Shown here in pieces: positions 35,195-36,554 of a stretch of 64,000 bases of DNA; the stretch's first letter is position 1; every line of letters starts with the position of its first letter. Location: positions 117,242,001-117,306,000 of the forward strand of contig OZ024741.1 in assembly GCA_964016885.1 (NCBI GenBank), written 5' to 3'. The notes beneath the pieces are model-generated. The model had not been told where the DNA came from, made no database searches, and saw only the letters and a list, made by a program, of their open reading frames with translations. This DNA comes from Eledone cirrhosa (taxonomy: Eukaryota). The position numbers and the translations under genes were made by a program.

Positions 35195-35421
35195 TATGAC
35201 CATACACATTATATATATATATATATATATATATATATATATATATATATATAAAGAATTAGTATATCTACTAACATATATATACAGATGCATACCTGTG
35301 CTAGCAAATATATAGGTTTTGTCTTAGTAACTTTGTGGTTCTATGCAAGGGGATGCAGAACAATAATATGAAAGACGTAAAATAAGAAAATTATAAAAAT
35401 TAACTTACTTACTAAAATTTC

Positions 35422-35504
35422 ACTCCAACTAATTAGTTTCTGAAAGGGAATAAACATGGTTTCCGAAGAAACTCACGGAGAAATCCTTTCGTCATCAGGG
35501 AAGT
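35422..35504 (-). ncRNA. Hammerhead motif, copy 1
   Basis: Reverse complement of 36125-36207 with one substitution. Confidence 0.7.
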
Positions 35505-36124
35505 CTATTCTCAGCTAAGTTTCCAGGCAATGCGTGGACACAGGGAACTTATACAAAAATAATTCAGTGGATGGAAAAAAGGAAAGCGTGGACTAAGTTC
35601 CAAGACATTGAAAAAAATCACTGCCTACTTGGTCGGTGGCAAATTCAAAAGAATCAATCACGAGACATCGAGGTTAATCAGTGAGGAGTGGTGTGTTAAG
35701 AAGACAGCAGCCGAACCATTACTATGAACTATAGTAGCAGTTTTGGCAAATTTTTGCTCAACAAAATAATTTGGAGATAATTATAAAGAATTAGTATATC
35801 TACTAACATATATATACAGATGCATACCTGTGCTAGCAAATATATAGGTTTTGTCTTAGTAACTTTGTGGTTCAATGCAAGGGGATGCAGAACAATAATA
35901 TGAAAGACGTAAAATAAGAAAATTATAAAAATTAACTTACTTACTAAAATTTCACTCCAACTAATTAGTTTCTGAAAGGGAATAAACATGGTTTCCGAAT
36001 AAACGCACGGAGAAATCCTTTCGTCATGGAACTTAGTCCACGCTTTCCTTTTTTCCATCCACTGAATTATTTTTGTATAAGTTCCCTGTGTCCACGCATT
36101 GCCTGGAAACTTAGCTGAGAATAG

Positions 36125-36207
36125 ACTTCCCTGATGACGAAAGGATTTCTCCGTGCGTTTCTTCGGAAACCATGTTTATTCCCTTTCAGAAACTAATTAG
36201 TTGGAGT
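36125..36207 (+). ncRNA. Hammerhead motif with UUCG-capped extended helix II
   Basis: ACTTCC-CTGATGA-C-GAAAGG..CGTGCGTTTC-TTCG-GAAACCATG..CCTTTC-A-GAAA-CTAATTAG-TT-GGAGT. Confidence 0.7.
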
Positions 36208-36554
36208 GAAATTTTAGTAAGTAAGTTAATTTTTATAATTTTCTTATTTTACGTCTTTCATATATATATATATATATATATATATATATATATATATATA
36301 TATATATATATATGTGTGTGTGTGTGTGTGTGTGTGTGTGTGTGTGTGTGTGTGTGTGTGTGGTTACGTAATAACGTCGCCAGATTCATATTTTGTTCAT
36401 ATGTCTCATATTTAAGTCGAATCCCATGATGCCGGTATTGTAACTGTCTGGGTGGGGAATTGTATATATTGAAGCTATATGTTTGGTGAATGTTTATCGA
36501 GCATTCTTAATTTAATATTTTATTTTATAATTTTGTCTATACGTGGTTTTCAAA

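Follow-up and report, generated by a model that had tools for sequence, protein, structure and literature searches.

A high-copy, ORF-less hammerhead tandem unit of Eledone cirrhosa with Penelope-type insertion anatomy

In this study we analyse a 64,000-nucleotide stretch of the Eledone cirrhosa genome (GCA_964016885.1, contig OZ024741.1, positions 117,242,001 to 117,306,000 of the forward strand; hereafter the window, whose numbering is used throughout). The window very probably records the recent insertion, truncated at the 5' end and inverted, of a high-copy tandem unit with a hammerhead and no ORF. A Neptune-type Penelope-like element (PLE) likely supplied the RT/GIY-YIG protein that moved it in trans; in other words, the unit would be a non-LTR retrozyme. 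Judged from sequence, the family to which this locus belongs is a non-LTR retrozyme, or non-autonomous PLE, undescribed in the literature that we found.

A preliminary description had read the locus as about 1.46 copies of a 532 bp tandem period fused to an inverted copy of about 235 bp, set in (TA)n, devoid of ORFs and with its inversion junction inside the hammerhead core, and our analysis agrees on each of these points. The direct repeat, of period 532, comprises a complete non-coding unit (35254-35785, minus strand; q1-532, numbered along that strand), whose 3' terminus, 35254, corresponds to the fixed end q532, and a tandem part-copy of 242 bp (q291-532; 35786-36027, minus strand) with three mismatches to the full unit. 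Arm comparison places a head-to-head (5'-to-5') junction at 36027/36028, where the part-copy meets an inverted arm of about 236 nt (about q185-420; 36028-36263, plus strand). Positions 36028-36261 are the reverse complement of 35368-35601 with a single mismatch, and the arms can be extended to 241 nt at 99%. The inverted arm ends at a second fixed end, q420, without the 112-nt 'tail' (q421-532; 35254-35365, minus strand) that separates the two ends in the complete unit. The 3' end of the sense arm abuts a (TA)n tract at 35210-35253, and that of the inverted arm a tract identified by repeat scan at 36260-36313; the longest ATG ORF at the locus is 38 aa. Intact hammerheads are found at 35422-35504 (minus strand) and at 36125-36207 (plus strand, in the inverted arm), the latter with a predicted cut after U at 36202. 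The junction splits the part-copy at CUG|AUGA, so that its core is broken within the CUGAUGA box and its cleavage site (35959) is retained; two consecutive complete hammerhead motifs are thus not present at this locus. The locus is one recent copy, a member of a young subfamily, and is probably an evolutionary dead end because each strand has only one whole hammerhead core.

The hammerhead motif is real and, as modelled, closes on the second of two GAAA runs. Rfam returned no hammerhead at the gathering score nor at E<=10, so the evidence for the ribozyme is covariation and folding and not a library match. In the minimal type I fold modelled on the minus strand, helix I pairs 35499-35504 with 35422-35426 (q282-287 with q360-364) and has one bulged base. 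It is followed by the CUGAUGA box (35492-35498), a C.A mismatch at 10.1/11.1 flanking helix II, and the 6-bp helix II itself (35485-35490 with 35442-35447), which encloses a UUCG hairpin. The closing GAAA lies at 35437-35440 (q346-349), and the palindromic helix III (35427-35438, q348-359) presents a UU site with U at position 17; folding predicts cleavage after U at 35427 (q359). Closure of the core on the first GAAA was rejected, as no helix I can form beside such a core and older subfamilies have another sequence in place of that GAAA, and a type III reading was rejected for want of a UH site.

Five covarying forms of helix II were observed among the subfamilies, and more were found besides. 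In 32 chosen copies, which are related and were found via a tag spanning helix III and the 3' strand of helix I, so that those parts are invariant by construction, pairing holds in 98.1% of 480 cells, against 30-49% in slid controls. Three helix II pairs, the helix largely free of this selection bias, are changed on both sides (23 cells), which none of 500 shuffles matched; 32 of the 500 reached the observed pair count. Moreover, all 11 core bases are kept in 47 of 52 best-hit copies, where 5 of 572 core cells differ compared with 745 of 22,380 cells elsewhere. These sequence comparisons indicate that the hammerhead is under constraint. Cleavage is predicted for the dimer only: when two copies are folded together with no constraint imposed, helices I and II form and the copies pair through a 12-bp palindrome, giving the dimeric form in which PLE ribozymes are described as acting (PMC4209133, PMC6765202). 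Counting against activity are the bulged helix I and the UU site in the window's subfamily; single-strand MFE folds of the short segment favour an alternative rod, and in a recent preprint eight of nine predicted Xenopus retrozyme dimers are given as uncleaved in vitro (bioRxiv 10.64898/2026.07.22.740005). In this genome, the hammerheads in and around coding-PLE loci resemble that of the unit in their mismatch at 10.1/11.1 and in a helix III that is self-complementary; a UU site or a long helix II occurs in some of them. The long helix II and the closing mismatch explain why standard descriptors overlook such ribozymes.

Other elements were observed in the surroundings. A small, unrelated hammerhead element lies at 35055-35209 (minus strand; core and helices at 35084-35123), with a CUGAAGA core, a U.U mismatch, a palindromic helix III and a UU site; its own short inversion gives a long hairpin, and related copies occur in seven other loci. 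It is a separate insertion in the same TA tract as the 532-bp unit. A broken LINE upstream (about 31600-34990), which we take to be RTE-like, retains endonuclease, RT and zinc-finger fragments and ends in the same TA tract; no link between it and the 532-bp unit was seen, TA tracts and another element intervening. Further hammerhead-like cores occur in the window at 19839, 24797 and 51931, the motif at 19839 being present also in several coding-PLE loci. At another locus (L062:6510-7419), a 459-bp tandem unit with a long-helix-II hammerhead sits in (TA)n behind a coding PLE and probably represents a second retrozyme-like family.

Insertions of the 532-bp family have the hallmarks of Penelope elements, in that their 3' ends are fixed at two positions, their targets are (TA)n, their 5' ends are scattered and arms are inverted head to head. 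We collected 100 locus records (30 best hits and 70 position-sampled on C1) and removed 13 that overlapped or were duplicates, which left 87 loci with 150 arms. The 3' ends of these arms fall at q532 in 74 cases, at q420, 112 nt away, in 58 and elsewhere in 18, and TA adjoins 119 of the 132 fixed ends. Arms stand head to head in 51 of the 87 loci; 62 of the 150 arms are longer than one unit, and 126 read across the predicted cut site. The 5' ends are scattered over 140 breakpoints (nine at q1-3 and one at a record edge being excluded). Six of these fall in q283-294, two of the six with identical flanks (L082, L090), and the core junction was accordingly rejected as a hot spot; the special meaning that had been attached to a junction inside the core does not hold. 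The loci combine incomplete tandems with an inverted copy truncated at its 5' end, and they show fixed 3' ends, a tail and a preference for (TA)n microsatellites; partial tandem, inverted copy, tail and microsatellite bias are the features given for EN+ PLEs in PMC8557442. By analogy, the 112-nt tail would be the stretch between two RT initiation sites. Furthermore, segments within a locus share a subfamily haplotype, with differences at 8.9% of diagnostic sites within loci (102 pairs, the array L144 excluded) versus 43% between loci (15,548 pairs), so that both arms of a locus appear usually to derive from one template lineage.

The preliminary description had proposed a genome-wide count of copies, and the family proves to be high-copy. 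A DNA search of the 3.0-Gb assembly with the unit returned 3,164 candidates, with 119 matches at 84-100% identity among the 40 candidates scored. An exact 24-mer ribozyme tag has 2,227 matches in the genome and its reversed control has none, so that the repeat is not due to chance; a disjoint variant tag has 7,017 exact matches (reversed control 0), which brings the two tags together to 9,244. Natural monomers, of which 42 were examined, measure 507-571 bp, are colinear along the entire unit at pairwise identities down to 70% and hold no ATG ORF above 89 aa; the unit is thus an old, self-standing non-coding lineage with successive subfamilies. In all subfamilies q532 is joined directly to q1, in tandems of up to about 16 units, and same-strand tags 508-594 bp apart mark consecutive complete type I hammerhead motifs in some loci. 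The family thus looks as a non-LTR retrozyme should: its tandem unit, a few hundred bp long, is non-coding and has neither LTR nor ORF, there is a type I hammerhead per unit, and some loci have two or more complete motifs in a row. Two runs of unknown library type, taken as contigs, confirmed many variant copies and nothing further. We found no published description of this family; Lunse et al. 2017, Repbase, Dfam or the supplementary material of PMC8557442 and PMC4209133 may already contain the family or the ribozyme variant.

The longest array seen (L144:427-8830, C1 near 94.67 Mb) holds about 16 units with a mosaic of shared variants and is terminated by a normal inverted arm: it is an insertion later grown into a small satellite, and some arrays thus also enlarge as satellite DNA. 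By eye, two further motifs kept across subfamilies were noted on the minus strand, a GTAAGT splice-donor-like run just past the ribozyme (35400-35415) and an E-box/CCAAT-like motif (35650-35670); these point to a possible intron and promoter, respectively.

A sister subfamily offers a view of the priming end. Its unit junction consists of two CT units, and all 100 listed internal junctions (of 247) are equal in length, with no gain of CT in any of them; by contrast, 34 of 40 distinct insertion ends, counted by eye in the first 100 of 1,039 rows, carry 2-13 extra CT units. Among 20 CT-gaining loci (L191-L210), 19 have a visible far end, and in 18 of these the opposite flank is (TA)n and not (CT)n, so that a pre-existing (CT)n target is rejected. 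The extra units suggest stuttering at RT initiation, for which reiterative copying would be the simplest cause; later expansion from two CT units beside a TA tract is a weaker explanation. Template slippage at initiation is described for the LINE RT and the TGTAA repeats of UnaL2 (PMC3747384), and Alu A-tail expansion is described as initiation slippage (PMC3415434); our literature searches, judged by titles and abstract openings, found no report of initiation stutter in a PLE. In the window's subfamily a stutter would merely lengthen (TA)n and hence be invisible.

We propose the following course for such an insertion. Tandem arrays would be transcribed into RNA of more than unit length, and the PLE protein would cut both strands of a (TA)n tract. 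Each cut end would then prime reverse transcription at q420 or q532, often with stutter; each of these two start sites is followed by a 4-nt AT/TA match. Synthesis would pass through the ribozyme site, over 774 nt in one arm and about 236 nt in the other at the present locus, and the two incomplete cDNAs would be joined head to head via short microhomology.

Because 126 of the 150 arms read through the cleavage site, the template for most arms would have been either an uncleaved multimer or a re-ligated circle. Some templates may nevertheless have been cleaved: a weak excess of breakpoints, 12 of the 140, lies just 3' of the predicted cut (q358-369), with a post hoc P of 0.003 and a scan P of 0.03-0.2 for a range picked after inspection. 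Genome-wide, a by-eye tally of TA-joined ends in 200 of 386 rows, with duplicates and unrelated rows incompletely removed, places about 22 rows at q343-357, about 16 at q358-361 and the rest at q362-373. This is a gradient with no step, which AT microhomology and ascertainment can also produce.

Between the two kinds of template, a circular RNA of about 532 nt, formed by dimer cleavage and ligation and copied by rolling-circle reverse transcription, is a real but minority possibility. It would account for the arms that cross the cleavage site and for the 62 that exceed one unit, and it is consistent with the common haplotype of the segments of a locus and with the conserved ribozyme; circular RNAs are reported as demonstrated for coral, mussel and axolotl retrozymes (PMC7229834). 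However, a homogeneous tandem source array would yield an identical pattern, the main substrate of the one PLE tested is given as uncleaved RNA (PMC11167929), and minimal PLE hammerheads are described as cleaving poorly in vitro (PMC4209133). Nine within-locus pairs, from four loci, moreover differ at at least 25% of diagnostic sites; within-locus differences as such were rejected as a discriminator between circle and linear multimer. Somewhat more tentative still is the fuller picture of a protein-free, long-lived lineage that would live as a dimer-cut RNA circle of about 530 nt, be copied in rolling fashion by a Penelope RT with a telomerase-like, 2-nt reiterative start, and write microsatellite with its insertions. 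If this is true, each insertion writes its own microsatellite, (CT)n in one subfamily and longer (TA)n in that of the window, and the element lengthens its own targets.

The protein that would act on the unit was sought among 10,594 candidate GIY-YIG matches in the genome, 150 of which were scored. Two open RT+GIY-YIG frames, L061:3809-6622 (minus strand, 938 aa) and L063:1775-5062 (plus strand, 1,096 aa), are candidate mobilisers. A CX4CxxC linker, the type that PMC8557442 ties to Neptune microsatellite targeting, was seen by eye in the long RT+GIY-YIG frames; a regular expression for the Neptune linker did not match any of 32 further loci. In the L061 element the pLTR is about 1,070 bp long and ends in (TA)n, and scanning it revealed no hammerhead of the CUGANGA type. 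Searched with a profile of the unit, 60 loci (50 GIY-YIG-selected from the 150 scored, and 10 family-locus extensions) yielded family copies only and no homologous pLTR, and the partner search as a whole (GIY-YIG loci, profile and degenerate core pattern) returned only further subfamilies of the unit. Since none of these loci contained an autonomous partner whose pLTR is homologous to the unit, the likely assignment to Neptune comes from target type and motifs only.

These searches also bear on the alternative raised in the preliminary description, that the unit is itself the pLTR of a coding element. The reading in which it is an ordinary pLTR of a coding PLE with rare, unsampled full-length copies draws on a hammerhead type and an insertion anatomy that are the same as in coding PLEs, and on PLE ORF fragments within 11 of the 70 position-sampled and 3 of the 30 best-hit locus records. 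The nearby fragments, however, belong to several different families at varied distances and orientations, and those at L116, L122 and L140 are, by eye, separate elements, each ending in a 3' region of its own and, in two cases, with a hammerhead of its own. Among the examined loci, for which 200 of the 9,244 tag positions were listed, leaving room for a rare coding master, no RT/GIY-YIG ORF has the unit as its end. Together with the lack of any PLE protein match in 32 further loci, of a homologous pLTR in the 60 loci, and with the direct q532-q1 joins of every subfamily, this makes the ordinary-pLTR reading unlikely, and we give it very little weight. The other half of the earlier proposal, a non-autonomous hammerhead retroelement with Penelope-type ends, is upheld by the tandem and inverted insertion anatomy of an ORF-less unit. 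Least probable of all is a dispersed satellite or DNA-level repeat (Helitron-like or recombinational) with the ribozyme as a passenger, which fits the mosaic of shared variants in array L144, typical of unequal exchange. It is largely refuted for the dispersed copies, whose 3' ends are fixed at two sites and whose 5' ends are ragged, which target TA and are inverted, which gain CT units nowhere but at insertion ends, and whose RNA structure is constrained.

Whether Penelope machinery moves animal retrozymes, and whether a circle is the template, has so far rested on co-occurrence and pLTR similarity. The present family, a non-LTR retrozyme by its sequence, displays the entire Penelope insertion signature on an ORF-less unit, in thousands of copies and several successive subfamilies. 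Moreover, it is a ready substrate for an in vitro PLE assay, with two predicted starts, a predicted cut site and a CT versus TA stutter read-out, and such a stutter would link PLE initiation to the repeat addition of the telomerase relatives of PLEs and to microsatellite growth. The element is thus of a known kind, and its copying footprints are unusually clear.

The family shares with the animal non-LTR retrozymes, as characterised in PMC7229834 and bioRxiv 10.64898/2026.07.22.740005, a non-coding, low-GC (here 35%) tandem unit with one type I hammerhead each, the occurrence as monomers, dimers and multimers, and the coexistence with PLEs. The unit of about 530 bp lies within the 51-972 bp range given by Li, Clavereau & Pollet 2026 (bioRxiv 10.64898/2026.07.22.740005) and is longer than the 150-450 bp given by Cervera & de la Pena 2020 (PMC7229834). 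The latter report coral and axolotl retrozymes with a canonical ribozyme, whereas the ribozyme here is of the minimal PLE type with a helix II domain of about 50 nt. Unlike retrozymes with demonstrated circles, the present family is known from DNA alone, and its PLE link is read from insertion anatomy, not from pLTR homology.

Like the EN+ PLEs of the Neptune clade, as presented by Craig et al. 2021 (PMC8557442), the family forms partial tandems and an inverted copy that lacks its 5' part, has a tail at one of its ends and targets microsatellites. Those elements code, whereas the unit has no ORF, and its tail of 112 nt compares with the usual 30-40 nt in PLEs. A palindromic minimal hammerhead with predicted dimeric action is common to the PLE ribozymes of Cervera & de la Pena 2014 (PMC4209133); unlike the PLE type, the hammerhead here has no G10.1-C11.1 pair beside the core, although counting C and A as bulges would restore one. 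Two initiation sites are present both here and in anole Poseidon, for which Frangieh et al. 2024 (PMC11167929) describe in vitro extension of both strands, two internal starts that define the tail, and no need for cleavage; the Poseidon start site is given there as non-homologous, whereas both start sites here have a 4-nt match to the TA target. The Chlamys MRC1-like non-autonomous PLEs (PMC8557442) are likewise ORF-less, head-to-tail and multicopy with a pLTR-like structure, but that account has them mostly devoid of hammerheads and resembling an autonomous partner at the 3' end, and none such was found here. Finally, as in the slippage described for UnaL2 and Alu (PMC3747384, PMC3415434), new inserts carry more of a short priming-end repeat than the template does; unlike in these LINE cases, the stutter here concerns a dinucleotide at the internal start site of a PLE-type element.
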